Below, piece after piece: positions 2,818 to 26,982 of a DNA stretch of 64,000 nucleotides. The stretch lies in the sequence record OZ335964.1; one strand, 5' to 3'. The translations under genes and the position numbers were made by a program. This DNA is from a phage. The notes under the pieces are model-generated. The model was not told the DNA's origin. It made no database searches and worked only from the letters and a program-made list of their open reading frames with translations. Numbering within the stretch: the stretch's first letter is position 1; each line of letters opens with the position of its first letter.

Positions 2818-2851
2818 ATACGATAATGCATAAAAAGATGAGGAAATTCTA

Positions 2852-11333: not shown

Positions 11334-13052
11334 ATGAAGCTAAATCCAGATGCGGTTATTAATGCTGGTTCTGTTGGCGGTGGCACTGGTTCCGGCGGTG
11401 GTGGTATTCAGATCGGAACTAATGTACCATGCGGAATTAAAAATACTCATCGTTTCGAAAATGAAGCTGAACGAGACGCATATTTTACCACTAAATTTGC
11501 GGAATTGGATCGCCTAAAAACAATTATTGTTTGCGGTGGTAAACTTCAATTGTGGACAGGTGCGACCGCCGCATCGCCTTATGATAATACCAAATGGGTC
11601 GATATGACCTGGGTAATTCAAGGCGAACAGGGTACTACTGGTGAAAAAGGCGAGAATGGACGAGGTATTGCCAGAATTGAAGCGCAAATCTCTGATGATG
11701 ATCGCGAATGGAAACTAGAAATTACCTACTCAGATTCTACCACAGAAACATTAACTTTCCCTGTACCTGATGTGTTAGCTAATGTTGCGCAACGTCTTAC
11801 TGCATTAGAGGTAAGATGGACAGCAACTGGTCAGCCAGTTAATAACCTTGATGCGACTGTAGATCAGGGTCGTTATCCGGTTGGAGATAACACATACGGT
11901 AAGCCACCAATGATGGCAAATAAGGGGTCTGCTGATGTATATGTCATTGAGGGTAGCATTATTCAAGTGGTTCGTTCTATTGACGGTGGCGTGTACTCTC
12001 GTATCCGACACAACGGTCATTGGAGCGAGTGGGTCTCACAAAGTGGCGGTGGAAATGGTAGCGGTGGAGGCTTGACGGGTGATCAAGAAGCTATGTTAAC
12101 TAGCTTAGTTAATCGTCTACCGGAAATTTCACCAAATACACGCGATCTTAACACTCTACAGAAGCAAGGTCGTTTCTGTTATGATGAACGTACTACAAAC
12201 CGCCCTAATGGTACTCAGGTACACGGGTCGGTAGATGTTCATGCTTGCAAAGATCATGTATTACAAATCGCAACCAGTCTCGATGGTGTCATGTCACATC
12301 GCGCACTGGACAAAGCAAACGGTACATGGTCTGATTGGTTGCAGATAAGCGATCATACTGGTGGGGCTACGATTTACGCGTTTCCTAGAGTTTCTAGTGT
12401 ATTCACCACTTCGCAAAACTTGATTGAAGTCACAAAACCGGGCGCTGGATTCTTTTATATTCCGTGGAAATATGTTATTCATGATAACTATGGATGCACT
12501 CCACAGATCCAACACCCAGACCGTCAACAAGATGCGGATCATTGGTGGGTATGCCCGAAATCCGGTAGCTATGACATGGAATTATTGCTTGATATGAGTT
12601 TTATCAAGACACAAGCAACTATTCCGGTTCTTGCTGCTGTAACGGCATGGCACAGGAAAGCAGACGGAAGCGAGACAGAAGCCGCACGTTATCAAATCCC
12701 GTTTGATGTTACCCAGAAAAACCAGAAAACAAGATCCGCTAAACTCCGCATTAATAATTTGCCATCCGGCGAGATGATCCGCTGGCAGGTAAAACTCAGT
12801 GGTTATAGCTGGAGCGAAACTGATAACCCAGACGTAGCATTTGCACCCTTCCGCACTATGCTGATGGTCGATGAAGCAGAATACGACACAGCAAAACGAA
12901 TTGGTGCTCTTGCGTTCAATACATGGGCTAACTTCCATGCGAAAAAAGGTTTTGCTGCCGCTGTAAGTGAGGACGAAAATCAGAAAGCACGTCTTAACGC
13001 CGTTAAATGGGGTGCTGTCATTGAATCCGTCCAAGCTCAGTCACAACCATAA
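11334..13052 (+). CDS. Gly-rich protein with short collagen-like G-X-Y run; possible fibre or decoration protein
   Basis: 572-aa ORF; poly-Gly segments (GSVGGGTGSGGGGIQ, SGGGNGSGGG) and GEQGTTGEKGENGRG; RBS GGGGG. Confidence 0.6.
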   Translation: MKLNPDAVINAGSVGGGTGSGGGGIQIGTNVPCGIKNTHRFENEAERDAYFTTKFAELDRLKTIIVCGGKLQLWTGATAASPYDNTKWVDMTWVIQGEQGTTGEKGENGRGIARIEAQISDDDREWKLEITYSDSTTETLTFPVPDVLANVAQRLTALEVRWTATGQPVNNLDATVDQGRYPVGDNTYGKPPMMANKGSADVYVIEGSIIQVVRSIDGGVYSRIRHNGHWSEWVSQSGGGNGSGGGLTGDQEAMLTSLVNRLPEISPNTRDLNTLQKQGRFCYDERTTNRPNGTQVHGSVDVHACKDHVLQIATSLDGVMSHRALDKANGTWSDWLQISDHTGGATIYAFPRVSSVFTTSQNLIEVTKPGAGFFYIPWKYVIHDNYGCTPQIQHPDRQQDADHWWVCPKSGSYDMELLLDMSFIKTQATIPVLAAVTAWHRKADGSETEAARYQIPFDVTQKNQKTRSAKLRINNLPSGEMIRWQVKLSGYSWSETDNPDVAFAPFRTMLMVDEAEYDTAKRIGALAFNTWANFHAKKGFAAAVSEDENQKARLNAVKWGAVIESVQAQSQP

Positions 13053-13330
13053 TGGGGGTGTATAGGGTTATAGCTGGAGCGAAACTGATAACCCAGACGT
13101 AGCATTTGCACCCTTCCGCACTATGCTGATGGTCGATGAAGCAGAATACGACACAGCAAAACGAATTGGTGCTCTTGCGTTCAATACATGGGCTAACTTC
13201 CATGCGAAAAAAGGTTTTGCTGCCGCTGTAAGTGAGGACGAAAATCAGAAAGCACGTCTTAACGCCGTTAAATGGGGTGCTGTCATTGAATCCGTCCAAG
13301 CTCAGTCACAACCATAATGGGGGTGTATAG
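12801..13330. repeat. Perfect tandem duplication, 2 x 265 bp (12801-13065 and 13066-13330)
   Basis: Second unit repeats the last 84 codons, stop codon and 13-nt 3' flank of the 572-aa gene; identical translations appear twice in the ORF track on both strands. Confidence 0.85.
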
Positions 13331-14253
13331 TGGAACATACAGGAAAAAGGTTGCTAGATCTTAGAAATGGTTTTAATCAGGGTGAAATCACAGAAATCAC
13401 TGGTATGCCAGCTAGTGCTCTCATGGAGGCAGACGTAAGCCGCATATCTAATCAAATCAACACCGAACTAATTGATCCGGTGATTGATTTTGTTATTGCT
13501 TGCGATGAAGTTATCGCAAATGCAGCCGAGGATGCTTTAAACAAAGCCGATAGCGCCGAGAGTATGGCAGAAGTCGCAGACCGAACGGCAGGTCAATCTA
13601 TGAGCAAGGCAACCGATGCTCTAGACAAAGCGACGACCGCAGAATCGGAAGCAGGGCGAGCGCATGATCGCTTAGACAAGTTGAACATTCCACAAATCCC
13701 GAACTTAGACGGGCACACATGGAATTGGCTACCACGTTCTTTCGATAGCGTGTCTATTCAGTTGGGAAGCGGTATCACATTAGTTGATCCAGTGAACGGC
13801 AAGCCTCACATTACATGGACACCAATTAGACAGAACTACGAGACAGGAAGATATTACATCGAGGGTCGTTTTGAAGCCAGATTTAAAGTAATGTTAATGG
13901 ACTGGATTCAACAATCATCCGGTGGTCATATTTTCTATCTAGGTGGTGGTCAAAGTCTGGCATCATTTAACGGACGCGTGTCACTGGTGAATATCTCGAA
14001 TGATATAATGAAGCCGACTAATATACAAGTCAACGCATACACCGCCAAAGATACTCAAGTTATTTTCGGTGCGTGTGCTGATGCGGCAATTTCAACATCA
14101 AGGGAAGTTAAACTAGCTTTCATGGTTGATACTGGAACAGATAAATTTGACCGATATAATGATCCTGTATATGTTGATTTGGTAATGACATTCCAACGCG
14201 ACGGGGAAGGAAATTTCGGATTCGGAAATCTTTTCCCAAGCCTAAATCCTTGA
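13330..14253 (+). CDS. Fibrous protein with N-terminal domain shared with the next ORF; GTG start
   Basis: 307-aa ORF; N-terminus (ALMEADVSRISNQINTELIDPVIDFVIACD) is paralogous to the 621-aa ORF; Ala/Asp-rich helical segment then a globular C-terminal part. Confidence 0.6.
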   Translation: MEHTGKRLLDLRNGFNQGEITEITGMPASALMEADVSRISNQINTELIDPVIDFVIACDEVIANAAEDALNKADSAESMAEVADRTAGQSMSKATDALDKATTAESEAGRAHDRLDKLNIPQIPNLDGHTWNWLPRSFDSVSIQLGSGITLVDPVNGKPHITWTPIRQNYETGRYYIEGRFEARFKVMLMDWIQQSSGGHIFYLGGGQSLASFNGRVSLVNISNDIMKPTNIQVNAYTAKDTQVIFGACADAAISTSREVKLAFMVDTGTDKFDRYNDPVYVDLVMTFQRDGEGNFGFGNLFPSLNP

Positions 14254-14311: not shown

Positions 14312-16177
14312 ATGTTAAGAAACCGTGCAATCAAGTCAACCCCTAATTTCATTCAAGGGGATATGGGAAATATTACCTCAAGAGATAATCATGCATTAAT
14401 GGAGCATGATATTCCAACAATCTCTGACACAATTAACAGGGATCTAATTACACCAGTAATTGATTTTATCAACGAATGCGATAATATTCTACTCGATGGA
14501 ATAGGGACGGTCGCAGATACTGTTGATATTATCGAACGGAAAGCTGATAATGCAACCGAAATTTCTAATTACGCCAGTGAAAAAGCTATCGAGGCATTGG
14601 CAAAATCAAAAGAAAGTTTGACGAAAGCGGAAGAAGCAAACACGGTAGCAAATAGTGTTGCTGGTGATGCGCAAACAGCATTAACTAAAGCTAATGAGGC
14701 TAAAACGCTAACAGACAGTCTTAAAACAAAAGTTGATGGTTATGACACCAGAATCACAGAAATTGATTCTAAGGCAACTACAGCGAAATCTGACGCGTCT
14801 TTAGCAAAAGATAAGGCTGATGCACTGGAAACAACGGTCAATAGCGAGAAAACTAAACTGACAGCATTGACTACTAAGGTCGATACTCTAGAAGGTGATA
14901 TTATCAATGCTGTGGATCTGGCTGAACAAGCAAAGAATAAAGCAGATTCAGTAGAAACACAAGCCATTAATAACACCACAGAGATTACCGCTTTAAAAGG
15001 CCGTGTATCAACTGTAGAGACACAATCAGCAGAAGCCAATAGACTGGCTACCCAAGCCGATAAAAATGCGTCTACGGCGCTCTCAGACGTTTCTACGTTA
15101 TCTTCAAAGGTTGATGATGTTAAGGCTACAGCCGACGCAGCAAGCGCAAGCGTGGCGGGATTAACTCAGGATATCGGAGAAGTGCGGACACTGACAGAAA
15201 CAGCCACGACAAACATCACAACTCTTTCCGGTAAAGTTGATACCATAAAGACAACCGCAGATACAAACAAGACCAATATTGAAGCATTAACCACTCAGGT
15301 TAATGAACACACAACTAAGATCGGAGAGTTGGAAACTGGTGTATCTAACGTTAATGGTGAACTTACCACGGTCAAAGGATCGCTAACCACGGTTCAGGAA
15401 ACCGCAGCTAATGCACTTCAAAAGGCCACCAGCGCAGAAACAAAGGCAGGTAATGTAGAGACACTAATTAATAGTCTTACACCGCGTGTGGACGCGTTAG
15501 AAGGCGATTTAGGTACATTAGAGAGCACTGTTGCTGATTTATCTCCTAAAGTGACAGCAGCAACCGAAAAAGCGACTATGGCATTCAACAAAGCAACTGC
15601 CTTAGAGCAAAAAACGGAATCGATGGAAACAGAAATCGAAGATGTTCGCCTCGATGCTGGGACCGCGATGGCAGAAGCGACACAAGCTAATAGTGAGATC
15701 GCCACGTTAAAAACTAAAGTCGGTGAACTGGAAAGCGATGTTGACACAGCCGATACAATCGCAAATGAAGCATTAGCAGTTGCACAAAGGGCGGATACTA
15801 ATGCAAATACAGCCAATACAAATCTTGCAACGATAACACCAATCGTGGAAAGATTGAATGGTGCATTTGTCGGTATGATTCGAATCAGATACAAGGAAAC
15901 TCGAACTATAACGAAAGCTGGCGGTAACACTCGTCGTAAGTTGATAATCCCACAAGTTCGAAAAGGTGATATGGCATTTGCGGCATTTTTAAACGTACCA
16001 GATAAACGAGATAGTATTCTGTTTAACTGTATGATTCCTGTCGACGGCGAAGTTCACATGGCAATAAAAAATCTGCATACCGCCGCATTAGATTTTAACG
16101 ATTGGGTTCAAATATTGGTATTCCAGACAAGTACGGGTAATCCTATTGTTGACCCAGAAACAAGCCTAACAAACTAA
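14312..16177 (+). CDS. Long coiled-coil fibre-like protein with distinct C-terminal domain
   Basis: 621-aa ORF; about 450 aa of low-complexity T/A/E/K-rich helical sequence; N-terminus (ALMEHDIPTISDTINRDLITPVIDFINECD) paralogous to the 307-aa ORF. Confidence 0.65.
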   Translation: MLRNRAIKSTPNFIQGDMGNITSRDNHALMEHDIPTISDTINRDLITPVIDFINECDNILLDGIGTVADTVDIIERKADNATEISNYASEKAIEALAKSKESLTKAEEANTVANSVAGDAQTALTKANEAKTLTDSLKTKVDGYDTRITEIDSKATTAKSDASLAKDKADALETTVNSEKTKLTALTTKVDTLEGDIINAVDLAEQAKNKADSVETQAINNTTEITALKGRVSTVETQSAEANRLATQADKNASTALSDVSTLSSKVDDVKATADAASASVAGLTQDIGEVRTLTETATTNITTLSGKVDTIKTTADTNKTNIEALTTQVNEHTTKIGELETGVSNVNGELTTVKGSLTTVQETAANALQKATSAETKAGNVETLINSLTPRVDALEGDLGTLESTVADLSPKVTAATEKATMAFNKATALEQKTESMETEIEDVRLDAGTAMAEATQANSEIATLKTKVGELESDVDTADTIANEALAVAQRADTNANTANTNLATITPIVERLNGAFVGMIRIRYKETRTITKAGGNTRRKLIIPQVRKGDMAFAAFLNVPDKRDSILFNCMIPVDGEVHMAIKNLHTAALDFNDWVQILVFQTSTGNPIVDPETSLTN

Positions 16178-16442: not shown

Positions 16443-17684
16443 ATGGCACAGATTTTCAATGAACTGTTAAAGGAATCGACTTCCTCAGTAGCAAACCAGA
16501 CAGCAAGACCACAATTATTGGCACTTACCCGCGCGGTTAACAACCTGATTTTCTCCGATCTGGTGGCAATTCAGCCAACAAATCAGCCTATTTGTGCATT
16601 ATTCGGACTTCGTTATGTTAACCGTGATGGTCAAATGACTTATCGTACCGCAGGAACGTATGGTGGTGCGGCTGGTAATCGTGATGTTTTTGAAGATTTT
16701 CAGAAAGATAAAGAATATCAGGTCGGTGATCATTTCAAATTTGATAATGTTGTATATGAAGTGATTACAGAAGGTGCAGTAGGACAGGATATTTCTACCG
16801 AAGAAGAAGCGATCTTTAAGGGAGTAGTGTCAAATAAAATTCGTTTCTTTAGTGATTATGCACCTACTGAATATTTCGAAGATGCAAACACTGAAATTTC
16901 TACTACCGATTTTGATTTTGAAAAATGGCAAGTTAATGTCGGATCTCGTAAACTGAAAACAGAATTTACGACCGAATTGATGCAAGATCTGGAAGCAAAC
17001 CAGATGAACTCTGAAAATACCGTTTTGGATCTTCTTGCTACCGTTGCATCCGAAGAAATCAATAAAGATATTATCCAGAAACTGATTACGGTATCAACTC
17101 GTTATAAAGTTAAGAGCATTACACCTGATGGCGTTCTTTCACTGGTTAACGTTCAGGACGCACCAGCACAAGCGCGTGAACTTTATCGCTATGCATGTGA
17201 AATGAGTAATCAAATGCTTCGCACTTCGTCTTTCGGTGGTACTTATGTTCTTGCATCTTCTCGTGTTGTTGGCCTCCTGCAAGCTAGTGGCTGGATGGAA
17301 GAAACTGACAATGCACTAAGTGAAGGTCGTTTACGTTGTGGTTTAGAAGTTTATGCGGACACTGTAACCCCGTTTGATTATATGATCGTTGGTTGTAAGC
17401 ATATGGTCGGTGATATGGAGAGCGTAGGTTCTCTGTTTTACTCCCCATATACAGAATCAGACGGAGCGGGTGCATATAAGAGCATCATCGATCCTAATAG
17501 CTTCAACCATAAAGTAGCGATTATGAATAGATATGCGCTTTCTGTCAACCCATACACAACCAAAGCTGATCAAGAAAACAACCAAGTAATCAAGGGTGAC
17601 GAGTGGGGCAAACTTGCCGGACGTTCAGAAATGTCCTACATGCTGGGTATCGAACTACCACCTCTTGAGATTGACAACGCTTAA
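16443..17684 (+). CDS. 24: Capsid vertex protein (gp24-like)
   Basis: 413-aa ORF, paralog of gp23 as in T4; TATAAATA at 16397. Confidence 0.9.
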   Translation: MAQIFNELLKESTSSVANQTARPQLLALTRAVNNLIFSDLVAIQPTNQPICALFGLRYVNRDGQMTYRTAGTYGGAAGNRDVFEDFQKDKEYQVGDHFKFDNVVYEVITEGAVGQDISTEEEAIFKGVVSNKIRFFSDYAPTEYFEDANTEISTTDFDFEKWQVNVGSRKLKTEFTTELMQDLEANQMNSENTVLDLLATVASEEINKDIIQKLITVSTRYKVKSITPDGVLSLVNVQDAPAQARELYRYACEMSNQMLRTSSFGGTYVLASSRVVGLLQASGWMEETDNALSEGRLRCGLEVYADTVTPFDYMIVGCKHMVGDMESVGSLFYSPYTESDGAGAYKSIIDPNSFNHKVAIMNRYALSVNPYTTKADQENNQVIKGDEWGKLAGRSEMSYMLGIELPPLEIDNA

Positions 17685-18272
17685 CTAAATATCTAACCAA
17701 GACAAATCAGATCCGCCCAAGATTTTTTCGACGGCGGATCTATTTTCTTGATGATATAAGTTAAAACATGGTATCCCATGTCTACGGGCAACATAAACAG
17801 CAATTCGAGTCCCGCCAGAAACAATCCCATTAACTTCTTTCGCCCAAAATAACACACAATCTACAGGATCATCAAGTGTCTCACCTAAGACTTGAGCAAC
17901 ATTTCTAGAAAACAGATTTTGCATGTATAACGGTATAGAACGAGGATTATCATAAACGTGTTCTAATTCATCCATCGCCAGATTTTTTTGTTCTAAGGTT
18001 TGCCATGCAATCACATCATGACCGTTATGCTTGTGGTCATAAAACTTCCAATTTGGAATGAAAATTTTTCTATAATCTGGATCGTAATACTTCATGAAAG
18101 CATTGTCCATACCGTAAGCCCCTCCAGAATGCGCTACAACGCGATTTTCTGACAATACCCTCCCAATGGTACTAGCCATTATCAAAATGTCGCTAGGCGC
18201 TTTTCTAGAGCCGATTAAAGCACATCTACGAAGTGGTTTTACGCCAAATAGATCTTGTAACTGGTCAAACAT
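17685..18272 (-). CDS. DprA/Smf-like (SLOG superfamily) Rossmann-fold protein
   Basis: 195 aa; motifs LIGSRKAP, HSGGAYGMD, LFSRNVAQVLG, SGGTRIAVYVARRHGIPCF resemble DprA signatures; RBS GGAGGAAA. Confidence 0.5.
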   Translation of the reverse strand: MFDQLQDLFGVKPLRRCALIGSRKAPSDILIMASTIGRVLSENRVVAHSGGAYGMDNAFMKYYDPDYRKIFIPNWKFYDHKHNGHDVIAWQTLEQKNLAMDELEHVYDNPRSIPLYMQNLFSRNVAQVLGETLDDPVDCVLFWAKEVNGIVSGGTRIAVYVARRHGIPCFNLYHQENRSAVEKILGGSDLSWLDI

Positions 18273-18424
18273 AATATTTCCTCCATAGAAAGCAATATCA
18301 TACTACAAGTTAATAACAAATACAAGTATCCGCGTAGCGGAAGCGAGCACAGCGAGCAATAAAACACTTCTAGCAATTGACTAATAAATGCTCGAAACAA
18401 ATTTTTATTATTCTATAAGATAAG

Positions 18425-18599
18425 TCTTCGTTTTGATCATAATTTAATCATACATGTAAAAACTACACAAAAGGATATCGCTTCGCGAACTCCTACGGAG
18501 TATAACATTTGTGTTACAATATGTATTGATTAATAATTAATCAAAGATACATTTTCTATGTTCTAAAGATCTTTCTTCGTTTTGATCATAATTTAATCA
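18425..18599. repeat. Two copies of a 26-bp direct repeat (TCTTCGTTTTGATCATAATTTAATCA) in an AT-rich intergenic region
   Basis: Exact copies at 18425-18450 and 18574-18599, 149 bp apart, inside the 413-bp noncoding region upstream of the DprA-like gene. Confidence 0.7.
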
Positions 18600-18652
18600 A
18601 ACGGTATTAATATTGTCCATATGTAAACTAAAATTATGCTAATAGCAGATAC

Positions 18653-18677
18653 AAAAAAGCCGCCCAGAAGGACGGCT
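18653..18677 (-). terminator. Terminator after ORF 18686
   Basis: Minus strand GC-rich hairpin followed by TTTTTT. Confidence 0.5.
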
Positions 18678-18685
18678 AATGTTAA

Positions 18686-19123
18686 TTATTTGTTGATAAC
18701 GATCTGATTTCGGCGAATGGTAACATTACTCTTAGAGATGATCAGATCATCCGGCACTACGTTAGTTTTGTATGGCTGGAAGCGAACAAGCATCTGATTG
18801 CGTTTAGACCCTTCCTTAATCTTGATTTCCATCTGGATATTGTTGCCTACGTGAGCAACCGCAATTTCACCTTTATTATCATAGACCCACTTGCTGGTAA
18901 CGTCGCCAGCGAAAGCCTTAATAACTTGCAATGCTTCGTCGTATGCGGTAGAACTGTGAACGTTCAGAAGACCAGCCGTTGCCAGACGTGAGCAAGTGAT
19001 CGCCGGAGACTGCCAAACATCAACATTAATTTGCTCAATCAGAGTAACACCGCCCTGATCAACTGCTTTGAATGCTTCGAACATTGCTTTTTTCATTGCT
19101 ACGTGGTTTTTACGGAATTTCAT
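18686..19123 (-). CDS. Hypothetical protein
   Basis: 145-aa ORF followed by a rho-independent terminator. Confidence 0.5.
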   Translation of the reverse strand: MKFRKNHVAMKKAMFEAFKAVDQGGVTLIEQINVDVWQSPAITCSRLATAGLLNVHSSTAYDEALQVIKAFAGDVTSKWVYDNKGEIAVAHVGNNIQMEIKIKEGSKRNQMLVRFQPYKTNVVPDDLIISKSNVTIRRNQIVINK

Positions 19124-19169
19124 AATTAGTCACCTCTATTGATTAGTTATTCATAATATTAATTACAAA

Positions 19170-19445
19170 TCAGGACATTGCCCGTTTGAATGCGTCCATT
19201 ATAACAGTGTTATTTGGCTTGTCAACACGTTTTTGAACTTTATTTTTAAATTTTTTGTTGATGTGGTGTTTACGATAAACAACCTTTTCACGGTTGGCGT
19301 AAGCCTCGCGTGCATCTTTTACCATCAACCATGCTTTAGCGGCATCTTGTCCGCTGATCCCGCCAATCTTCTTAGCAATATCAACAAAATTAAGACCGTG
19401 GTCTTCGCGTAGCATGTAAACCATTAACGCAGTTTTCTTGTCCAT
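19170..19445 (-). CDS. Hypothetical protein, possible HTH (start chosen at MDKK)
   Basis: ORF-track frame 19170..19553; internal ATG at 19445 has a G-rich RBS and overlaps the stop of the upstream small ORF. Confidence 0.4.
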   Translation of the reverse strand: MDKKTALMVYMLREDHGLNFVDIAKKIGGISGQDAAKAWLMVKDAREAYANREKVVYRKHHINKKFKNKVQKRVDKPNNTVIMDAFKRAMS

Positions 19446-19642
19446 CACTTCGCCCCATTGACGATTAACAGTATAGTGATCAGTACCGGAAACTGGATCA
19501 TGACAGTACCAAAAAACCGGATAAACGCATTTTCTGATTTCCATACATGACATGCGACTAGCTGATAGACCATTGTTGCAACCAAAGCCAGAAAATACAT
19601 CTCGATTGGTGTTTCTTTGATCAATCGTACAATCTCATTCAT
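19445..19642 (-). CDS. Small hydrophobic (membrane) protein
   Basis: 65-aa ORF with RBS GAGGTG; mostly hydrophobic residues. Confidence 0.4.
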   Translation of the reverse strand: MNEIVRLIKETPIEMYFLALVATMVYQLVACHVWKSENAFIRFFGTVMIQFPVLITILLIVNGAK

Positions 19643-19795
19643 ACTTCACCTCATACATTCATAAACACAACAACGAATAGGACAGTAACAGTTATTAAAG
19701 CCATTTTCAACCCCATATTCATAATATTTTCCTCATAGGGTAACGCCCTGTTGATGTGTGCCATTATAAGCCAATAAATCGCGCTGTCAAGCATA

Positions 19796-19824
19796 AAAAC
19801 AAAAAAGCCACCCCGAAGGATGGC
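19796..19824 (-). terminator. Terminator after the shorter hoc-like gene
   Basis: Minus strand GC hairpin (GCCATCC-TTCG-GGGTGGC) followed by a T-run. Confidence 0.6.
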
Positions 19825-19836
19825 TGATAAGTTTCA

Positions 19837-21072
19837 TTAAGCAGGAGGCGTTTCACGAATGCGTAGCATCTTCTCTAAGATCTCTCGATCCAGTCGGTGT
19901 AATTCGCTTGCGTTATACATAAATCCGTTTCGTGATTCCATACAGATGCAATCACCAAATTTTTCTTCCGCTGCCGCGATAGTCTCGATATCGTGTGCGT
20001 ATCGGCTATCTTCATAGACAGCACGATCCCTCCAGTCTTGCCCTTTCTCGTTGAACTTCACGATCTCATCAAATACCCACCATCCAATGTAGATAAATGA
20101 CGTATTACGCCACGGAATCGGGTGTACATAACGTAACATACTATGAAGAGATTCAACCACTTCTACGGCGCAATGAGAGCTTCCTTTGTCCTCGATCAGT
20201 ACATCGTTTTTATTCAGCGTCTGATAGAGTTCAGCAACACACCAGAAATTAGCGGTGTCATCGGTGGTTGCGGCGTCTTTGTGTAGGTATCCATTAGGCA
20301 TAATAACGAATCCTTCAATGGCTTCTCCTTCCTCACTACCGATCAGTGTAGGTGCGGACTGCCCTTCACGTTGCAAATACCATTTTTGCTTAACTTTAAG
20401 CGGTGGCATAGATGCAGGAACATTACCAACGGTAACTCCCATAACACGATAAGGTAGTGTGAGTTCTTTACCCAATACAACCGTTTTTTCTAGCGGGAGA
20501 TCTTCAACTACAGACAAAGCGATAGACACCAGATCAATTGCTGCGGAGTCCATCGACGCTTCCGATTCGCCCCATACTTTAACCTTGTATTCGCCGTTCT
20601 TGTCATCGGTAAAGTTAGGGATAATAAGCGTATCTGTATTATTGCCTAAGTCTACGCCATTGTGCTCCCATTTGAAATTAAGGGTATAGTTATTTGCGGG
20701 AGATTGCCCGGTGGAGTATGCTACCGTTGCCACTATTCCGGTTTGTTCGTCATGCGGAACGTATTGAGAATGTTTATCAAGTTTGACAACCAATTCCGCT
20801 TCGGTCATCTTGAATACGTTAGATTCTACTACTTCTTGTGTGTCTGTGTCGGTTACTGTAACTTTATAGTTGCCAGCATTTGCAGACGTTGCACCAGTTA
20901 TTTTAATTGTTTTTGTTGTTTCCTGCAACGGCTGATCGTTATGCGACCATGCATATGTTACGTTTTGTGGTACTGGATCGCTGCCAACTGCTTCAATAGT
21001 AGCTGAAACGTTGAAAGTATCACCAGCCAGGAAACAACGACGGTTTGATTTTACTGTAACTGTGAATGCCAT
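19837..21072 (-). CDS. hoc: Hoc-like Ig-domain capsid decoration protein (shorter paralog)
   Basis: Ig-like repeats plus C-terminal YVHPIPWRNTSF...ESRNGF module shared with the upstream paralog; start set at MAFTVT (RBS GGAG) after the upstream terminator. Confidence 0.7.
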   Translation of the reverse strand: MAFTVTVKSNRRCFLAGDTFNVSATIEAVGSDPVPQNVTYAWSHNDQPLQETTKTIKITGATSANAGNYKVTVTDTDTQEVVESNVFKMTEAELVVKLDKHSQYVPHDEQTGIVATVAYSTGQSPANNYTLNFKWEHNGVDLGNNTDTLIIPNFTDDKNGEYKVKVWGESEASMDSAAIDLVSIALSVVEDLPLEKTVVLGKELTLPYRVMGVTVGNVPASMPPLKVKQKWYLQREGQSAPTLIGSEEGEAIEGFVIMPNGYLHKDAATTDDTANFWCVAELYQTLNKNDVLIEDKGSSHCAVEVVESLHSMLRYVHPIPWRNTSFIYIGWWVFDEIVKFNEKGQDWRDRAVYEDSRYAHDIETIAAAEEKFGDCICMESRNGFMYNASELHRLDREILEKMLRIRETPPA

Positions 21073-21087
21073 AATAGCCCACTCCAT

Positions 21088-21113
21088 GAAAAAAGATCGC
21101 CCCGAAGGGCGAC
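21088..21113 (-). terminator. Terminator between the two hoc-like genes
   Basis: Minus strand: GTCGCCC-TTCG-GGGCGA then TTTTTT. Confidence 0.65.
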
Positions 21114-21121
21114 CATATTGA

Positions 21122-23665
21122 TTAAAATAGTTGTGTACCATCAACCAGATAACCATTACGTGATTCGAGTACATGGGTATTGCTATAGTGGTGCAGCGAT
21201 GCCGCAATCGTCTCGATCTCGTCTGGATAACGGGTATGCGCGTAATCTTCCAGCCAGTTTAACCCCTCGGCATTGCAGCGATCAATTTCATCGAGTACCC
21301 AATACCCCTGATACTGGAAAGAAGTTCGACGCCACGGAATCGGGTGTACATATCGTTTAAGTTGCGCGGTAGTGAATACCACTTTAACTTTTTCGGTATG
21401 TGCAACATGACCTGTGTCATCTTTAATCTCTGCGTAGTAAGTCGCCTGGTGATTTTGTTTGCTGATCTGGTCTTTCGGGATCGTCAATACACGGTTGGTA
21501 GCACCTTGTATCTCTGTATCTCGTCCATTTTGGATCTTATGCCACTGCCACGCTACCGCTTTAGTATCATCAACATGTTCCGCATGTGCTTCTAACCGAA
21601 TATCCTGATTCTGGCCTTCTTTTGCCACAACATCGACCGGATGTTTCATGATATTGATGTTAGTATGCGGTGACATAGTGATTTCGGCTGCATTCGTTTC
21701 TAGCGTCCGCTCTGCCGCTTTAATTTCTGCGGTATAACGTCCAACGTCAGACGGTTTTGCGTGTTCAATGACCAACACCTCGGAATTTGCGCCGGGGATC
21801 GGTTTACCGTCCTTTTTCCATTGGTAGGATGGTTTAACCCCGATTGTATTGGTTGCTTGAGCGTGAAGCATAACCCTTTCGTTGTAATTTGCGTGCGTGC
21901 TTTGTGGATGCGTGACAATCTGTAGATCGTTCGGGACAATCGTCGGATCGTCAGTTACCAATACCCGCACGGCCTCGGACATTTTAGACACTCGATGTTC
22001 ACCGAATCCCGCAGATACACGACATGTATACACGCCAGTAGATGATAACTGTGCGTGTTCTTCGCCGTATACATTACGTTGCTCTACCCCCATAGGAAAC
22101 AGGTCTTCTCCGTCTTTAAACCAACGATACCGCACGGGTAGCGCATCATTGGAAGTCGCGGTGATAGTCAGCGCCCATTGTCCACCTGAACGAACACTAA
22201 CGGCTTTTGGTTGCACATCAATATTGATGTTAGCGCGGGAGTTGTCTACTGTCACCTGAACTTCATTTGATTCTTTGGTGATTCGGTGGTTTTGAATCCC
22301 CATAGAAACAATACATTTATAAGTTCCCTCATCTGCTTTAGTAATGGCAGAAAAATGCAGTGCAGTTGACGTTTTACCCGGCAACAATTCGCCGTTTTTA
22401 TACCACTGATAATCGAGTTTATAATGTTCATAGTCGGTTGTTGCTTGACAAATCAGTGATTGTGCTGAACTCACGCGAACATTATTGATTGTCTGTGGTT
22501 GTTGGGTGATCGTAATGGTAGGAGCAGCACCGACAAGCAAACTTGCTTCCTGAGTGTCTACGGTCCGGTTTTCTCCATAAGTGATTATGGCCTTATATTT
22601 CGCCTGATTAAGATCCTGTGTTGCTGGAATGATGTGCAATTCCTTATTAGTTTCCCCTACAATCGGTTTAAACTCTTGATCGCCATCTTTCTTGATATAC
22701 CACTGAATTTTAACAGGTGAATAGTTTGTTGCATAATCAACTTTAAACAAAGCGAGAGCACCAGCACCTACGTTAATTGTTAACGGTTCTTGTGTCACTC
22801 GAAAGAATGCGCGATCATCAACAACTACTTTACAATCTTTAGAATATACGGTAGTATCAGCTTGACGAACTTCCAAACGCCAGATACCAGCGTCTTTTTT
22901 CGTTACGTTAGGGATGATCATAGCAGACCCGTTTTGTTCTGGGACCATTCTGCCATTATGAATCCACACATATTCAATTCGACGGGTAGCATCATCCGAA
23001 GTTACAGCAACTTCTAGATCCAGTCGCCCATCTTCCGGTACATGAACTTCCGGCGCATATTGCTCATTGAGATGAATAACCGGAGCATCTTTATTTTGTT
23101 CAACTACCACCGGACTGATCCAATAGAATGACCGTGCATCATCTTCTACAAAAACTTTGCAAGTATAGTTGCCAAAGTCTTCATAACTAACGCGGTCAAC
23201 ATGCACAGAGATATTATCAGGAGTTTTATCACCTGATAGCTGTACATGGTTGCGATACCAAATATAAGCCGCTCGATGATTTTCTTCAATAAACGGGGTA
23301 GCGAAAATATCCAAAGATTCGCCTAATCGCTTGTAAATGTAAGTTGGTGATTGATCGTGTGGTGCGATAAAAATACGTCGCTCGACCAGAATTGGCTTTA
23401 TATCCACATATTCCATTGGATTTTCTGCCAATTTAACACGCGCGGTGTAAGTACCGAATTGATTTGCATCCATCTCGGCAATATACAGAGATTGATCCAC
23501 ATCCGATACTTGATCCGCTGGTACACTTTGTCCGTTTAGCTTCCATTCTACAATATAGTCTTTAAAATCTGCTGTGCTAACTACAACTTTAAGTAAGAGT
23601 TCACGGCCTACAGAAGCATAAACCGGACCCATAGTTTGATGCAATACATTGATTTTATTAGACAT
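21122..23665 (-). CDS. hoc: Giant Hoc-like protein with multiple Ig-like domains
   Basis: 847 aa; repeated beta-rich Ig-like units (e.g. GTYTARV, GNYTCKV, GTYKCIVS, GVYTCRVS, GRYTAEIK); C-terminal YVHPIPWRRTSFQYQGYW...ESRNGY capsid-binding-like module; hoc position after gene 24. Confidence 0.75.
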   Translation of the reverse strand: MSNKINVLHQTMGPVYASVGRELLLKVVVSTADFKDYIVEWKLNGQSVPADQVSDVDQSLYIAEMDANQFGTYTARVKLAENPMEYVDIKPILVERRIFIAPHDQSPTYIYKRLGESLDIFATPFIEENHRAAYIWYRNHVQLSGDKTPDNISVHVDRVSYEDFGNYTCKVFVEDDARSFYWISPVVVEQNKDAPVIHLNEQYAPEVHVPEDGRLDLEVAVTSDDATRRIEYVWIHNGRMVPEQNGSAMIIPNVTKKDAGIWRLEVRQADTTVYSKDCKVVVDDRAFFRVTQEPLTINVGAGALALFKVDYATNYSPVKIQWYIKKDGDQEFKPIVGETNKELHIIPATQDLNQAKYKAIITYGENRTVDTQEASLLVGAAPTITITQQPQTINNVRVSSAQSLICQATTDYEHYKLDYQWYKNGELLPGKTSTALHFSAITKADEGTYKCIVSMGIQNHRITKESNEVQVTVDNSRANINIDVQPKAVSVRSGGQWALTITATSNDALPVRYRWFKDGEDLFPMGVEQRNVYGEEHAQLSSTGVYTCRVSAGFGEHRVSKMSEAVRVLVTDDPTIVPNDLQIVTHPQSTHANYNERVMLHAQATNTIGVKPSYQWKKDGKPIPGANSEVLVIEHAKPSDVGRYTAEIKAAERTLETNAAEITMSPHTNINIMKHPVDVVAKEGQNQDIRLEAHAEHVDDTKAVAWQWHKIQNGRDTEIQGATNRVLTIPKDQISKQNHQATYYAEIKDDTGHVAHTEKVKVVFTTAQLKRYVHPIPWRRTSFQYQGYWVLDEIDRCNAEGLNWLEDYAHTRYPDEIETIAASLHHYSNTHVLESRNGYLVDGTQLF

Positions 23666-23743
23666 TTGCTATCCTCTTTTTAATTGCATAACGGAACTAC
23701 AATTAAAATCATAACAAATGCTTCACTTCTTACTAACAAGTAT

Positions 23744-24445
23744 TTACTTGAGAGTATGGAATTGACTATGTTTAGTTTCTCGTACCTTGACAGACCCATC
23801 ACGCTTGATATAATAGATCAACGATTTCAAAGTATCGTGTACATACGCGTGCGGGAAACGTTCTGGGTGTGCTTTCCAATCTGGGGTATTCTGAATCCAG
23901 TCGAAAATCCACCACGGAAGGCAATAATAACCGCGACCGCCACCGATCAGATTAATGGTTGGACGGAAGTTAGTTAGGTCAATCATATCATTGGTAACAT
24001 CTGCGCGGTGTTCTGCTTCGTCAGAGAAAATGTCAGCTACCGGAGTTTCTACAACTTCCGGTGTCGGTTCATGCTTGACTTCCTCTACGGTTTCATTTAC
24101 AATCGGTTTCTCTTCGATGATTTCTGTTTCCGGTTCTTTCATAGCTTCAACCAGAGACGGATCAACTTCATCGAATACTACTTTATCTTCTGCGGTATCT
24201 GCTGCAACAATCAGATCGGTGATACTGGTTCCTTCGGTAGCGTTATCAGCTTCCATTTCTGTTGCTAGTTTATTGAGTTCTGATTCTACGTTGGTGATCA
24301 TGGTTTCCAGTGACCAAGTTTTCTTCACCTTAATGTCAAACTGTTTAGCGTAATCAGCTAATTCATTTTTAGCTGTCTTTTGTGCTTCTTTATCGTCGGA
24401 CGCCGCAATAGAGCGGAGTTCTTCGAAATATTCTTTATCAAACAT
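23744..24445 (-). CDS. Acidic protein in the inh position (Inh-like, by synteny only)
   Basis: 233-aa ORF between hoc and uvsW. Confidence 0.4.
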   Translation of the reverse strand: MFDKEYFEELRSIAASDDKEAQKTAKNELADYAKQFDIKVKKTWSLETMITNVESELNKLATEMEADNATEGTSITDLIVAADTAEDKVVFDEVDPSLVEAMKEPETEIIEEKPIVNETVEEVKHEPTPEVVETPVADIFSDEAEHRADVTNDMIDLTNFRPTINLIGGGRGYYCLPWWIFDWIQNTPDWKAHPERFPHAYVHDTLKSLIYYIKRDGSVKVRETKHSQFHTLK

Positions 24446-24471
24446 GTTATTCTCCTAAATGGGGGTGTTTG

Positions 24472-24479
24472 TATAAATA
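24472..24479 (+). promoter_or_regulatory. T4-type late promoter TATAAATA (uvsW)
   Basis: Exact TATAAATA about 40 nt upstream of the uvsW start. Confidence 0.55.
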
Positions 24480-24518
24480 TCGGTATACTGTATTTATTAT
24501 AACGTGAGGCTATTTGCG

Positions 24519-26021
24519 ATGCACGATATTAAGATTCATTTTATCAATTATTCCCATGTACAGATTGAATGTAGCGATTCAATCTTGATGGAGATGCGGG
24601 AATACTTTAGTTTTGAAGTCGAGGGCGCACAATTTCAAAAACGTGTGCGTTATGGTGGATGGGATGGGCGTATTCGTCTGTTAGACTATAACGGAAAATT
24701 ACCAATTGGCCTAACTAAAACCGTTGGAATCTTTGCTAAAAATATGGGCTATTCTGTTTGGGTAGATCCTCGCTTATTCGAAAAAGAACAAGTTACAGAA
24801 GAAGAAATTACAAAATGGTGTAATGACCTAGAATTATATTCCGGTGCTAATAGAATTACCCCGCATTGGTATCAATCAAAAGCAGTATTTGAAGGTATTC
24901 ATCATAAACGTAGAATGTTAGTTCTTCCCACGTCTGCTGGTAAATCTGCTATTGCTTGTATGTTGTCTCGTTGGTACTTAGAAAACTACGAGGGTAAGGT
25001 GCTGATCATTGTCCCGACGACCTCGCTTGTTCTCCAGATGCGTGATGATTTCGTAGATTATCGCCAGTTTCCTTATGAGGCAATTCATACTATCATGAGT
25101 GGAACTAGTAAACACGTAGGGGATCGCCTGATCGTTGTAAGTACATGGCAATCTGCATGTAAACAACCTCGTGAGTGGTTCCAACAATTCGGGATGGTTA
25201 TTGTTGACGAATGTCACAAGGCCACTGCTAAAAACCTGCTAAACATCGTTACTGATATGGATCATTGCCAATTTAAGATCGGCATGACTGGTTCCCCTCG
25301 TGACGGGAAAGCTAACATGATGCAGTATGTCGGGCTTTTCGGTGATATTTCTAAGATCGTGAGTATTGACCGCCTGATGGAAGAAGGTCAAGTGACAAAA
25401 CTGAAAATTAACTGTCTTTTCCTTCGTTATACCGATGAGGAATGTAGCGCGGTTAAGGGGCGAGAATATGCGGAAGAGATCAAGTATATTACATCTAACC
25501 CACGACGAAATAAGTTTGCTTGCAATTTGGCGCTAAAACTCGCTAAGAAGGGCGAAAACGTATTCCTGATGTTCCGCAATACTAAGCACGGAAAACTTAT
25601 GTATGATGCGTTACAGAAGGTACACGACAAGGTTTATTATATTGACGGTGGAGTCAAGACAGAAGAACGTGATGAATTTAAGAAATTAGCGGAAGGGGAA
25701 ACAGGGATCATTTGCGTTGCATCCTATGGTGTGTTCTCTACTGGTGTTTCCATCAAGAACTTGCATCATGTTATTTTCGGGCATCCAGTTAAAGAATCAA
25801 CCATTGTTAGACAGAGTATCGGTCGTGCATTGCGTAAACATGGTTCTAAAGACATTGCGACGGTCTGGGATCTTATCGATCATTTGGCAGTAAAGACAAA
25901 GAGCAAGAATGCAAAGAAACAATTCAGCCATCTGAATTACGCTCTTAAACACGCGTTAGAACGCATTAAGATTTATAACGCTGACCGTTTTGAGTATGTC
26001 ACCAAAACTATTGAGATTTAA
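24519..26021 (+). CDS. uvsW: UvsW DNA/RNA helicase
   Basis: Aligns with T4 UvsW from MHDIKIHF; helicase motifs PTSAGKS, VIVDECHKA, ASYGVFSTGVS; TATAAATA late promoter upstream. Confidence 0.9.
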   Translation: MHDIKIHFINYSHVQIECSDSILMEMREYFSFEVEGAQFQKRVRYGGWDGRIRLLDYNGKLPIGLTKTVGIFAKNMGYSVWVDPRLFEKEQVTEEEITKWCNDLELYSGANRITPHWYQSKAVFEGIHHKRRMLVLPTSAGKSAIACMLSRWYLENYEGKVLIIVPTTSLVLQMRDDFVDYRQFPYEAIHTIMSGTSKHVGDRLIVVSTWQSACKQPREWFQQFGMVIVDECHKATAKNLLNIVTDMDHCQFKIGMTGSPRDGKANMMQYVGLFGDISKIVSIDRLMEEGQVTKLKINCLFLRYTDEECSAVKGREYAEEIKYITSNPRRNKFACNLALKLAKKGENVFLMFRNTKHGKLMYDALQKVHDKVYYIDGGVKTEERDEFKKLAEGETGIICVASYGVFSTGVSIKNLHHVIFGHPVKESTIVRQSIGRALRKHGSKDIATVWDLIDHLAVKTKSKNAKKQFSHLNYALKHALERIKIYNADRFEYVTKTIEI

Positions 26022-26066: not shown

Positions 26067-26306
26067 ATGTGTATTAGTTTTAAAAGATTTCTGGTGGAGG
26101 CCGCAATTGATGGCTTCATGAATAAAATCTATTCCTGTAATACTCTTGATGGATTGGATGAACTGGAAGGATATTACGAGAAGCGTAAAAAAGAGACTGA
26201 GCTTAAACCTGCTGATGATATCTCTATTCGTGATGCTATCGCCGGACGACGTAAACAACTGGAAGCAGAGAACGAGCCAGAAGAGGAGCCGGAAGAAGAA
26301 TTTTAA
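26067..26306 (+). CDS. UvsW.1-like small acidic protein (by position)
   Basis: Start chosen at MCISFKRF (RBS GGAG); acidic C-terminus. Confidence 0.45.
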   Translation: MCISFKRFLVEAAIDGFMNKIYSCNTLDGLDELEGYYEKRKKETELKPADDISIRDAIAGRRKQLEAENEPEEEPEEEF

Positions 26307-26313
26307 TATATAT

Positions 26314-26338
26314 AAAAAAGCCCCATCAATGATGGGGC
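26314..26338 (-). terminator. Terminator downstream of the uvsY operon
   Basis: Minus strand GCCCCATC-ATTG-ATGGGGC followed by TTTTTT. Confidence 0.55.
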
Positions 26339-26377
26339 AAACAAAACCAATTTAAAATCGGTTATCAACAAATATTT

Positions 26378-26554
26378 TACAAAAGCAACATAGTGCTTTC
26401 TACCAGTTGTTCTTGTTCTTCTGCATCCGATTCATTCAGATGATTCTGGCTGGCAATTTCAGCACAATAGCCAGAGTGAACAACATGGTCGTTTACTTTA
26501 ATCCCTAAAGCGGGTTCTACTGGTGTTTTGCACACCGGACAAATACAGGTCATA
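26378..26554 (-). CDS. Small Cys-rich protein (58 aa), below track cutoff
   Basis: MTCICPVCKT...HSGYC; RBS GGAGG; upstream of uvsY region. Confidence 0.35.
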
Positions 26555-26574
26555 AACTTTCCTCCTACCTTTAT

Positions 26575-26982
26575 TTATCGTCCAGATTCTAGCATACGCA
26601 ACTCTATAGCATTCTTGATCGCGAATCCTCGTGATTTGATTATATCAAGAGCCTTGCCAGCAAAATCCATAACCATTTGATAATAAGCAATTTTTGTATC
26701 AATTGGTAGGATCTCGTCGTCTGCCGTCATAACTACTTTCAATTCGGTTGAAGAGTATTCAACTCGACACCACTCATCGCTACGGTTAGTATAAAAATCA
26801 AGTTTATTCTTAACCGCTTTCTTTTTCTTTGCTTCCAGCGCAATGATCTCGCGCTTTGCTTCACTATACACACGAAGCCATTTAGAGTAAACTACAGGGT
26901 TGTTAAGTGCTTCCCATTGCAGCTTAGTAGCATCGATCTTCACATCTGCGTCAAGCTGGTCTTTTAGTTCATTCAGATCCAT
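26575..26982 (-). CDS. uvsY: UvsY recombination mediator
   Basis: Aligns with T4 UvsY (KLQWEA, YSKWL, KSRGFAIK); start set at MDLNELK with RBS GAGG. Confidence 0.85.
   Translation of the reverse strand: MDLNELKDQLDADVKIDATKLQWEALNNPVVYSKWLRVYSEAKREIIALEAKKKKAVKNKLDFYTNRSDEWCRVEYSSTELKVVMTADDEILPIDTKIAYYQMVMDFAGKALDIIKSRGFAIKNAIELRMLESGR

Follow-up and report, generated by a model that had tools for sequence, protein, structure and literature searches.

Hoc fibres form the main exposed, immunogenic surface of T4-type phages, serve as display scaffolds and are thought to mediate adherence to mucus or cells. Here we describe two hoc-type genes that lie in tandem on the minus strand of a 64,000-nucleotide stretch of phage DNA (sequence record OZ335964.1; hereafter "the window"): a short gene, hoc-S (19837-21072), and a long gene, hoc-L (21122-23665). 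The pair belongs to a Krischvirus, a T4-type phage from the group that includes RB49, Phi1 and JSE, and matches to the Hoc region were restricted to Krischvirus genomes. Gene order in the window runs gp23 (9262-10848), gp24 (16443-17684), small open reading frames (ORFs), hoc-S, hoc-L, inh (23744-24445) and uvsW (24504-26021), so that the hoc genes are flanked by the gene 24 region on one side and by inh/uvsW on the other, the location typical of the Hoc family, in the same order as in Phi1, JSE and JK32. A first-pass annotation, made from the sequence alone, had called two tandem hoc-like genes at 19837-23665, the longer encoding 847 amino acids, and both ORFs were found at exactly these coordinates. 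Its assignment of both genes to Hoc likewise holds: their sequences, the domain architecture of their products and their place between inh and the gene 24 region all confirm them as members of the Hoc family.

A short and a long Hoc with a common C-terminal module

The short gene, hoc-S (19837..21072, minus strand), codes for a protein of 411 amino acids with a mass of 46.0 kDa and an isoelectric point (pI) of 4.83. The ORF called mechanically at this position is longer (19837-21207, minus strand; 456 amino acids from a TTG start); we take the ATG at 21072 to be the true start, because it is preceded by a GGAG Shine-Dalgarno sequence 9 nucleotides upstream and because the protein that results (MAFTV...) lines up from its very first residue with the first residue of RB49 Hoc (PDB 3SHS). 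The match to RB49 Hoc extends over residues 1-306 and three immunoglobulin (Ig)-like domains (expectation value, E, 4.9e-89), which, aligned to the RB49 crystal structure, map to 20155-21072 on the minus strand; they are followed by a capsid-binding domain with a 20-residue tail (19840-20154, minus strand). Residues 289-390 align with residues 267-366 of T4 Hoc (E 4.1e-13), and the protein matches the PHROG family phrog_1149, "Hoc-like head decoration" (E 2e-56). Protein identity is 54-58% to the RB49-type Hocs of JK32, SSG23, Phi1, JSE, KFS-EC and TB34 and to that of G2248, and 65% to that of UPWr_E1. We take hoc-S to be the direct ortholog of RB49 Hoc. The 20-residue tail, HxLDRExLExxLRIRETPPA, is conserved in and confined to hoc-S, with hoc-L lacking it.

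The long gene, hoc-L (21122..23665, minus strand), begins with an ATG at 23665 preceded by AGAGGA, ends with a TAA at 21122-21124, and encodes a protein of 847 amino acids (95.9 kDa, pI 5.72). In an AlphaFold2 model, eight beta-sandwich domains stand ahead of the C-terminal domain, compared with three in T4 and RB49 Hoc. From the secondary structure of this model and its per-residue confidence (predicted local distance difference test, pLDDT), the Ig-like domains, all on the minus strand, were placed at residues ~1-96 (D1, nucleotides 23378-23665), ~97-192 (D2, 23090-23377), ~193-284 (D3, 22814-23089), ~285-380 (D4, 22526-22813), ~381-475 (D5, 22241-22525), ~476-572 (D6, 21950-22240), ~573-666 (D7, 21668-21949) and ~667-766 (D8, 21368-21667). 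The domain for capsid binding, at the C-terminus, occupies residues 767-847 (21125..21367; YVHPIPWRRTSFQYQGYWV...ESRNGYLVDGTQLF). When the whole protein was scanned against Pfam, it matched Ig_3 (E 2e-41; 140.6 bits, cut-off 30), Ig_2 (E 6e-32; 110.2 bits, cut-off 27) and I-set (E 4e-21; 75.5 bits, cut-off 23.7). Scanned one by one, D1-3 and D5-7 matched Ig profiles, with D5 and D7 alone exceeding the cut-off and D1-3 and D6 falling under it, and D8 was weakly PKD-like; D4 had no Pfam match when scanned alone, yet it resembles D5 and D6 at z scores of 9-10.6. A Foldseek search with the full model returned Robo2, contactins, an 8-Ig fragment of DSCAM and titin, which confirms strings of Ig domains only. 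The predicted architecture is thus eight plus one domains, as opposed to three plus one in T4 and RB49. The first-pass annotation was therefore right in giving the long protein many Ig-like domains, while its estimate of about twice the usual number was too low.

The two proteins are joined by their C-terminal module, as had also been proposed at first pass. Residues 760-846 of hoc-L and 303-391 of hoc-S share 45% identity over 89 residues by BLASTP (E 2e-22), with a local alignment score 36.7 standard deviations above shuffled sequences; outside this module the two are at most distantly alike. Since Pfam contains no family for the Hoc capsid-binding domain, which in T4 Hoc spans residues ~281-376, PHROGs and PDB sequences were used as references. 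Residues 743-845 of hoc-L align with residues 266-366 of T4 Hoc from a capsid electron cryo-microscopy entry (PDB 5vf3_Z; E 1.3e-16), hoc-L matches phrog_1149 (E 8e-51), and both proteins match phrog_1149, phrog_14282 and phrog_11091, all annotated as Hoc-like head decoration. The C-terminal domain is also the most conserved part of hoc-L, with 90% mean pairwise identity and 70% invariant columns.

In T4, the Hoc residues that contact the capsid protein gp23* are Y293, H295, R300, W309, W310, D313 and the ESRNG loop at 355-359; a single Hoc monomer touches all six gp23* subunits of a hexamer, and vertex-proximal hexamers bind Hoc differently (PMC10385173). Every one of these contact residues (Y, H, R, W, W, D, ESRNG) is kept in hoc-S. 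The corresponding residues of hoc-L are Y772, H774, R779, Y788 (replacing W309), W789, D792 and ESRNG at 834-838. On the side of the capsid, 17 of the 19 residues in the Hoc-binding stretch of T4 gp23 (G326-R344) are identical in the window phage, D336, P337 and R344 among them.

Expression signals

The first gene of the unit, inh (23744..24445, minus strand), encodes the inhibitor of prohead protease (phrog_1051, E 9e-71) and is annotated as inh in JK32 and Phi1. Upstream of it lies a late-promoter-like motif, AATAAATA (24491..24498, minus strand), which matches the T4 sequence TATAAATA at 7 of 8 positions. A motif of the form (T/A)ATAAATA is found in the same place in JK32, Phi1, G2248 and metagenome contig L009, with a looser TAAATA core in contig L010 and the exact TATAAATA in contig L011. 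No TATAAATA was found directly upstream of hoc-L or hoc-S in the nearby minus-strand sequence. A late promoter belonging to either gene was considered and rejected, the sole sites with one mismatch being located within the hoc-L coding sequence or upstream of inh. The gap between inh and hoc-L narrows to 12 nucleotides in L010.

Between hoc-L and hoc-S there is a GC-rich hairpin (21095..21114, minus strand) whose loop is UUCG and behind which UUUUUU follows; it is a candidate intrinsic terminator, attenuator or mRNA-stabilising element. It occupies the same position in all eight loci that bear hoc-L, with stems that differ in sequence yet remain complementary through compensatory changes, and is annotated in G2248 as a terminator (-18.2 kcal). 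A second element of this kind, an intrinsic terminator with a UUCG loop and a U-run, follows hoc-S (19806..19825, minus strand) and is conserved in JK32, G2248, L009 and Phi1. In summary, inh, hoc-L and hoc-S look like a single late operon, likely starting at the motif upstream of inh, in which the ratio of one fibre to the other may depend on the intergenic hairpin.

The leader of hoc-L (23666-23720, minus strand; ATTTGTTATGATTTTAATTGTAGTTCCGTTATGCAATTAAAAAGAGGA) hardly varies among loci that differ by 20-40% in their coding sequences. It includes a short inverted repeat (AATTG...CAATT) and is also kept in genomes in which hoc-L carries an internal deletion (see below). Past the hoc-S terminator, perfect 12/12 sigma-70 promoters at 19763-19790 and 19198-19225 (minus strand) precede small downstream genes, so that units of early type directly follow the late hoc unit on the same strand. 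A further perfect sigma-70 consensus (TTGACA, 16 nucleotides, TATAAT, extended TG) lies within inh on the opposite strand, facing uvsW (23787-23814, plus strand), and could give rise to an antisense or early transcript.

Conservation, loss and exchange of the hoc genes and their surroundings

A search of 5.8 billion protein clusters identified 13 full-length relatives of hoc-L, all of them 841-847 amino acids long, which are 60-83% identical to it and align with almost no insertions or deletions. None of the proteins in these clusters is identical to hoc-L, and the window allele is therefore new. Six isolate genomes carry hoc-L (SSG23, SFHK24, Brandy, JK32, UPWr_E1 and G2248), and the order inh-hocL-hocS recurs in JK32, SSG23, G2248 and UPWr_E1 as well as in four metagenome contigs, at identities as low as 60%. 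No frameshifts or stops were found in hoc-L among 14 aligned sequences and 8 loci, and the most variable domains are D3 and D4 (~60% mean identity). Nei-Gojobori ratios of nonsynonymous to synonymous substitution (dN/dS) between alleles are 0.07-0.11 for hoc-L and 0.04-0.23 for hoc-S, showing that both genes are under purifying selection. The lone ratio near 1, for hoc-S of Phi1 against JSE, is based on ~3% divergence and is uninformative. Ratios of 0.04-0.23 at saturated synonymous sites lend no support to positive or diversifying selection as the source of this divergence; they mean that the alleles are of great age and have not evolved fast.

Against this background, hoc-L has been lost from 53 of 59 sequenced related isolates (~90%), including RB49, Phi1 and JSE. 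A scar left by an internal deletion of ~2.3 kb is present in 53 phage-collection records, 12 of which are of the Phi1 type, while 6 have an intact hoc-L. In Phi1, the 54-residue "ORF168.1" between hoc and inh is an out-of-frame fusion of the first 34 codons of hoc-L (82% identity) to its last ~113 nucleotides; in RB49, JSE, TB34 and KFS-EC only the first ~32 nucleotides of hoc-L remain, joined at the same right-hand junction as in Phi1. The scar ORFs lie at 4455-4619 in Phi1 (L003), 2955-3044 in JSE (L005) and 2832-3023 in TB34 (L004), and the stem of the intergenic hairpin is missing from the scar genomes. "Hypothetical" ORFs such as Phi1 ORF168.1 and RB49p168.2, located between hoc and inh in RB49-type phages, are pseudogene fragments of hoc-L, and phrog_19377 and phrog_32100, both listed in PHROG as families of "unknown function", are built from such scar ORFs. 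An insertion as the origin of the difference from RB49 was rejected, as the short genomes still carry the two coding ends of hoc-L, fused out of frame; the hoc-L/hoc-S pair is therefore ancestral. Since the right-hand junction is identical in all scars, the loss looks like a single old deletion of ~2.3 kb, followed by a secondary deletion of 75 bp, and not like repeated decay. An old deletion removed the long gene from the lineage most prominent in culture collections, of which RB49, whose Hoc yielded the crystal structure, is a member. As is typical of the Hoc family, hoc-L is non-essential: the 53 isolates that carry the deletion are viable, and it follows that the gene is dispensable, at least on laboratory hosts.

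Comparison of the window with JK32 revealed a divergent cassette within a near-identical backbone. Identity is 97-100% over 16700-19700 and 95-99.5% over 25069-25668, but falls to 55-80% over hoc-S, hoc-L, inh and the start of uvsW (19900-24900). Within this cassette, inh has 78% amino acid identity to its JK32 counterpart, as against 97-99% for the flanking genes, and synonymous difference is 0.65-0.68 in the hoc genes as against 0.05 in the adjacent orf145. The hoc genes are old, deeply diverged alleles that have recombined into young, near-identical backbones. In a comparison with metagenome contig L009, the genes that remain similar are hoc-S (88-97%) and inh (88-99%), and hoc-L alone drops to 67-83%; the two hoc genes therefore reassort independently of one another. 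The breaks in identity coincide with the intergenic hairpin and with sequence close to the 5' end of hoc-L. Crossover probably takes place in the conserved gene ends, which are also what the scars retain. A separate mosaic junction was seen beyond uvsW, in the uvsW.1/uvsY region (26069-26800), where the window can no longer be aligned with JK32 (~40-50%) and is still ~82% identical to SSG23.

The surroundings of the locus hold several further ORFs. Three on the plus strand lie between gp23 (major capsid protein) and gp24 (vertex protein), encoding 572 (11334-13052), 307 (13330-14253) and 621 (14312-16177) amino acids. The first two have no Pfam match, and the third, which gave tropomyosin-like and alanine-zipper matches, encodes a long coiled-coil protein; contigs L010 and L011 have comparable ORFs (304-309 and 561-564 amino acids) flanking gp24. 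Adjoining gp24, at the position of T4 rnlB, an ORF at 17685-18272 (minus strand) shows a weak DprA/DNA_processg_A match (E 8e-5, under the Pfam cut-off), and its counterpart in SSG23 is labelled "DprA-like DNA recombination-mediator".

A proposed sharing of one capsid by two fibres, and comparison with known systems

The interpretation that we favour, and regard as likely, is that inh, hoc-L, the hairpin, hoc-S and the terminator form, in that order, a late head-gene unit encoding two Hoc capsid decoration fibres in Krischvirus, with the sharing of one capsid as its inferred element. Each fibre would dock by its conserved C-terminal domain, as the T4 Hoc monomer does at the centre of a gp23* hexamer. 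Because the contacts are kept in both proteins and the gp23 site is conserved, a shared hexamer-centre site, and hence competition, is a reasonable expectation; it is also the simplest one, since one Hoc monomer contacts all six subunits, and hoc-L and hoc-S would then both be carried on the virion and compete for hexamer centres. If extended at ~45 A per domain (T4 Hoc has 4 domains and measures 180 A), hoc-L would reach ~400 A. With both proteins made late and binding the same ~155 hexamer centres, one per hexamer, the result would be a mixed, two-tier coat, in which the ratio of hoc-L to hoc-S would be set by expression, possibly through read-through of the hairpin, and by affinity. The Ig strings would attach the phage weakly and reversibly to mucus or to the surfaces of cells, as has been suggested for T4 Hoc. 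Within the clade the pair is ancestral, and its old alleles are exchanged by homologous recombination via their conserved ends, either together or separately.

Several observations weigh against this interpretation. One is the loss of hoc-L from some 90% of related isolates. In the AlphaFold model, which drew on a 14-sequence alignment, pLDDT is below 50 over residues 767-789 and 821-847 of the C-terminal domain of hoc-L, so that its fold and docking are argued from sequence homology alone. Furthermore, the pI reported as typical of Hoc is ~4-5 (PMC10385173); hoc-S has 4.83, and hoc-L, at 5.72, is less acidic. Mean identity is 90% among L-type and 80% among S-type C-terminal domains, and each type has fixed residues of its own throughout the clade; these distinct sequences, together with the tail found only in hoc-S, would also fit different sites or affinities and so leave room for a different affinity or placement. 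In addition, hoc-S could be poorly expressed beside hoc-L, given that a strong hairpin and U-run intervene and that no promoter was found for hoc-S. Finally, the literature on SSG23 and its relatives contained no mention of Hoc and no virion proteomics.

Some of these points feed directly into alternative explanations. Both proteins might decorate the capsid without competing, by using different sites, subsets or orientations of capsomers, or with hoc-L bound by way of hoc-S or on top of it. That the C-terminal domains are only 45% identical, with each conserved within its type and one carrying a tail, speaks for such a division, as does the different binding of Hoc at vertex-proximal hexamers in T4 (PMC10385173). 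However, the highly conserved T4 capsid contacts are kept in both proteins, apart from the change of W309 to Y in hoc-L, the hexamers are built of a single gp23 with one conserved binding stretch, and a monomer that contacts six subunits leaves no room for a second (PMC10385173); we therefore regard non-competing decoration as unlikely. Less likely still is that hoc-L is dispensable baggage in the course of being lost, poorly expressed or not incorporated, with the head decorated by hoc-S alone. The viability of the 53 of 59 related isolates with an internal deletion in hoc-L (RB49, Phi1 and JSE among them) is what such a gene would predict, but a dN/dS of 0.07-0.11 across saturated synonymous divergence, a length fixed at 841-847 amino acids, a C-terminal domain with 70% invariant columns and the freedom from frameshifts and stops are not, and the common right-hand junction speaks for one old event and not for repeated decay. 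As for the 847-residue ORF being an assembly or sequencing fusion of two genes, an outcome that the first-pass annotation had named as fatal to its proposal, or the product of a recent duplication of Ig repeats, nothing beyond the unusual length relative to T4 Hoc suggests it. Orthologs of equal length, almost free of indels and 60-83% identical, occur in independent isolates and metagenome assemblies (841-847 amino acids in 13 protein clusters and 6 isolates), which excludes a sequencing fusion. The eight domains are mutually distant, with a best local BLOSUM62 score of 92 and no near-identical repeats, and there has thus been no recent tandem or internal expansion; we give this explanation next to no credence.

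A broader and more tentative proposal, for which we would put the chances at somewhat less than even, builds on the favoured two-fibre interpretation. Krischvirus heads may naturally bear a two-tier coat, with Hoc fibres of ~18 nm and ~40 nm, drawn from ancient, serotype-like allele families that are held under purifying selection and reshuffled independently via their conserved ends and the hairpin. The culture-dominant lineage that includes RB49 would on this account be degenerate, its long fibre lost in a single old deletion, and present pictures of RB49-type capsid surfaces would miss an outer layer. For therapy and display, it matters that most cultured Krischviruses, RB49 included, are without a surface component that is kept under selection in their metagenome relatives, and the deep divergence of cassette alleles bears on antigenic cross-reactivity among otherwise near-identical phages. 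The E. coli and Shigella phages in hand that have both a short and a long Hoc (JK32, SSG23, G2248 and UPWr_E1) offer a tractable system, and such two-Hoc isolates could reveal whether two Hocs share the capsid, how the ratio of fibres is controlled and how fibre length affects adhesion.

Among known systems, T4 Hoc (376 amino acids; PDB 5vf3, 8t1x, 8t9r) and RB49 Hoc (404 amino acids; PDB 3SHS) resemble the window pair in three ways: the C-terminal domain is the same, with its ESRNG loop and Y/H/R/W contacts, Ig-like domains are strung together ahead of it, and the locus lies next to inh. They differ from hoc-L in having three Ig-like domains instead of eight, as well as in the C-terminal tail, which hoc-L lacks, and in pI (5.7 for hoc-L). 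T4 has one hoc gene and RB49 one hoc gene plus a hoc-L scar, whereas the window has two intact hoc genes. The closest relatives of the pair are found in JK32, SSG23, SFHK24, Brandy, UPWr_E1 and vB_EcoM_G2248, which have the same tandem layout, proteins of 408-410 and 846-847 amino acids, and the intergenic hairpin. Relative to JK32-type pairs, the window alleles have 67-78% (hoc-L) and 54-65% (hoc-S) protein identity, compared with 97-99% for the flanks. Both genes of Shigella phage JK32 (JK32_00169 and JK32_00170) are already annotated as "head outer capsid protein", while the long gene is labelled no more than "hypothetical protein" in the records of SSG23, Brandy, UPWr_E1 and G2248.

The nearest non-Hoc phage matches to D5-D7 of hoc-L are an Ig-like "tail protein" of Felixounavirus (PDB 9c2d_S; phrog_3995) and an "Immunoglobulin-like domain protein" (PDB 9ncf_S), at ~28% identity (E 1e-17 to 2e-20). 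Both are annotated as tail components and lack the Hoc C-terminal domain, and the likeness is confined to Ig modules. A profile made from the C-terminal domains of hoc-L and hoc-S, searched against 1.84 billion representative proteins, retrieved 141 clusters whose members bear this domain, with lengths of 49-1473 amino acids (median 286), of which 31 reach at least 700 amino acids. Given that 23 of the 141 reach at least 847 amino acids, hoc-L is long without being an extreme case.

Fokine et al. (2023) described ~650 Hoc homologs, among them giant Hocs and phages with two Hocs, such as Serratia phage Muldoon, whose two proteins have 1174 (10 Ig domains) and 314 amino acids, and Enterobacter phage PG7, where they have 233 and 511 (PMC10385173). 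Like the window phage, Muldoon and PG7 each encode two proteins, one long and one short, with the capsid-binding domain of Hoc in common, and very long Ig strings occur there too. Unlike it, they belong to other genera and have other domain counts, the second PG7 protein carries its binding domain at the N-terminus together with a lipase/acylhydrolase domain, and neither deletion scars nor allele exchange were reported in that paper. Our literature search, with its incomplete coverage, found no paper on the long Hoc of Krischvirus, the RB49 scar or the exchange of alleles. The basic concept published in 2023 is unchanged by the present findings, and the window pair is a new allele of a known two-Hoc arrangement. 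What is added here is modest, namely the exact domain count, the layout of the operon with its hairpin, the scar that a deletion left in most isolates, and the recombination among ancient alleles.

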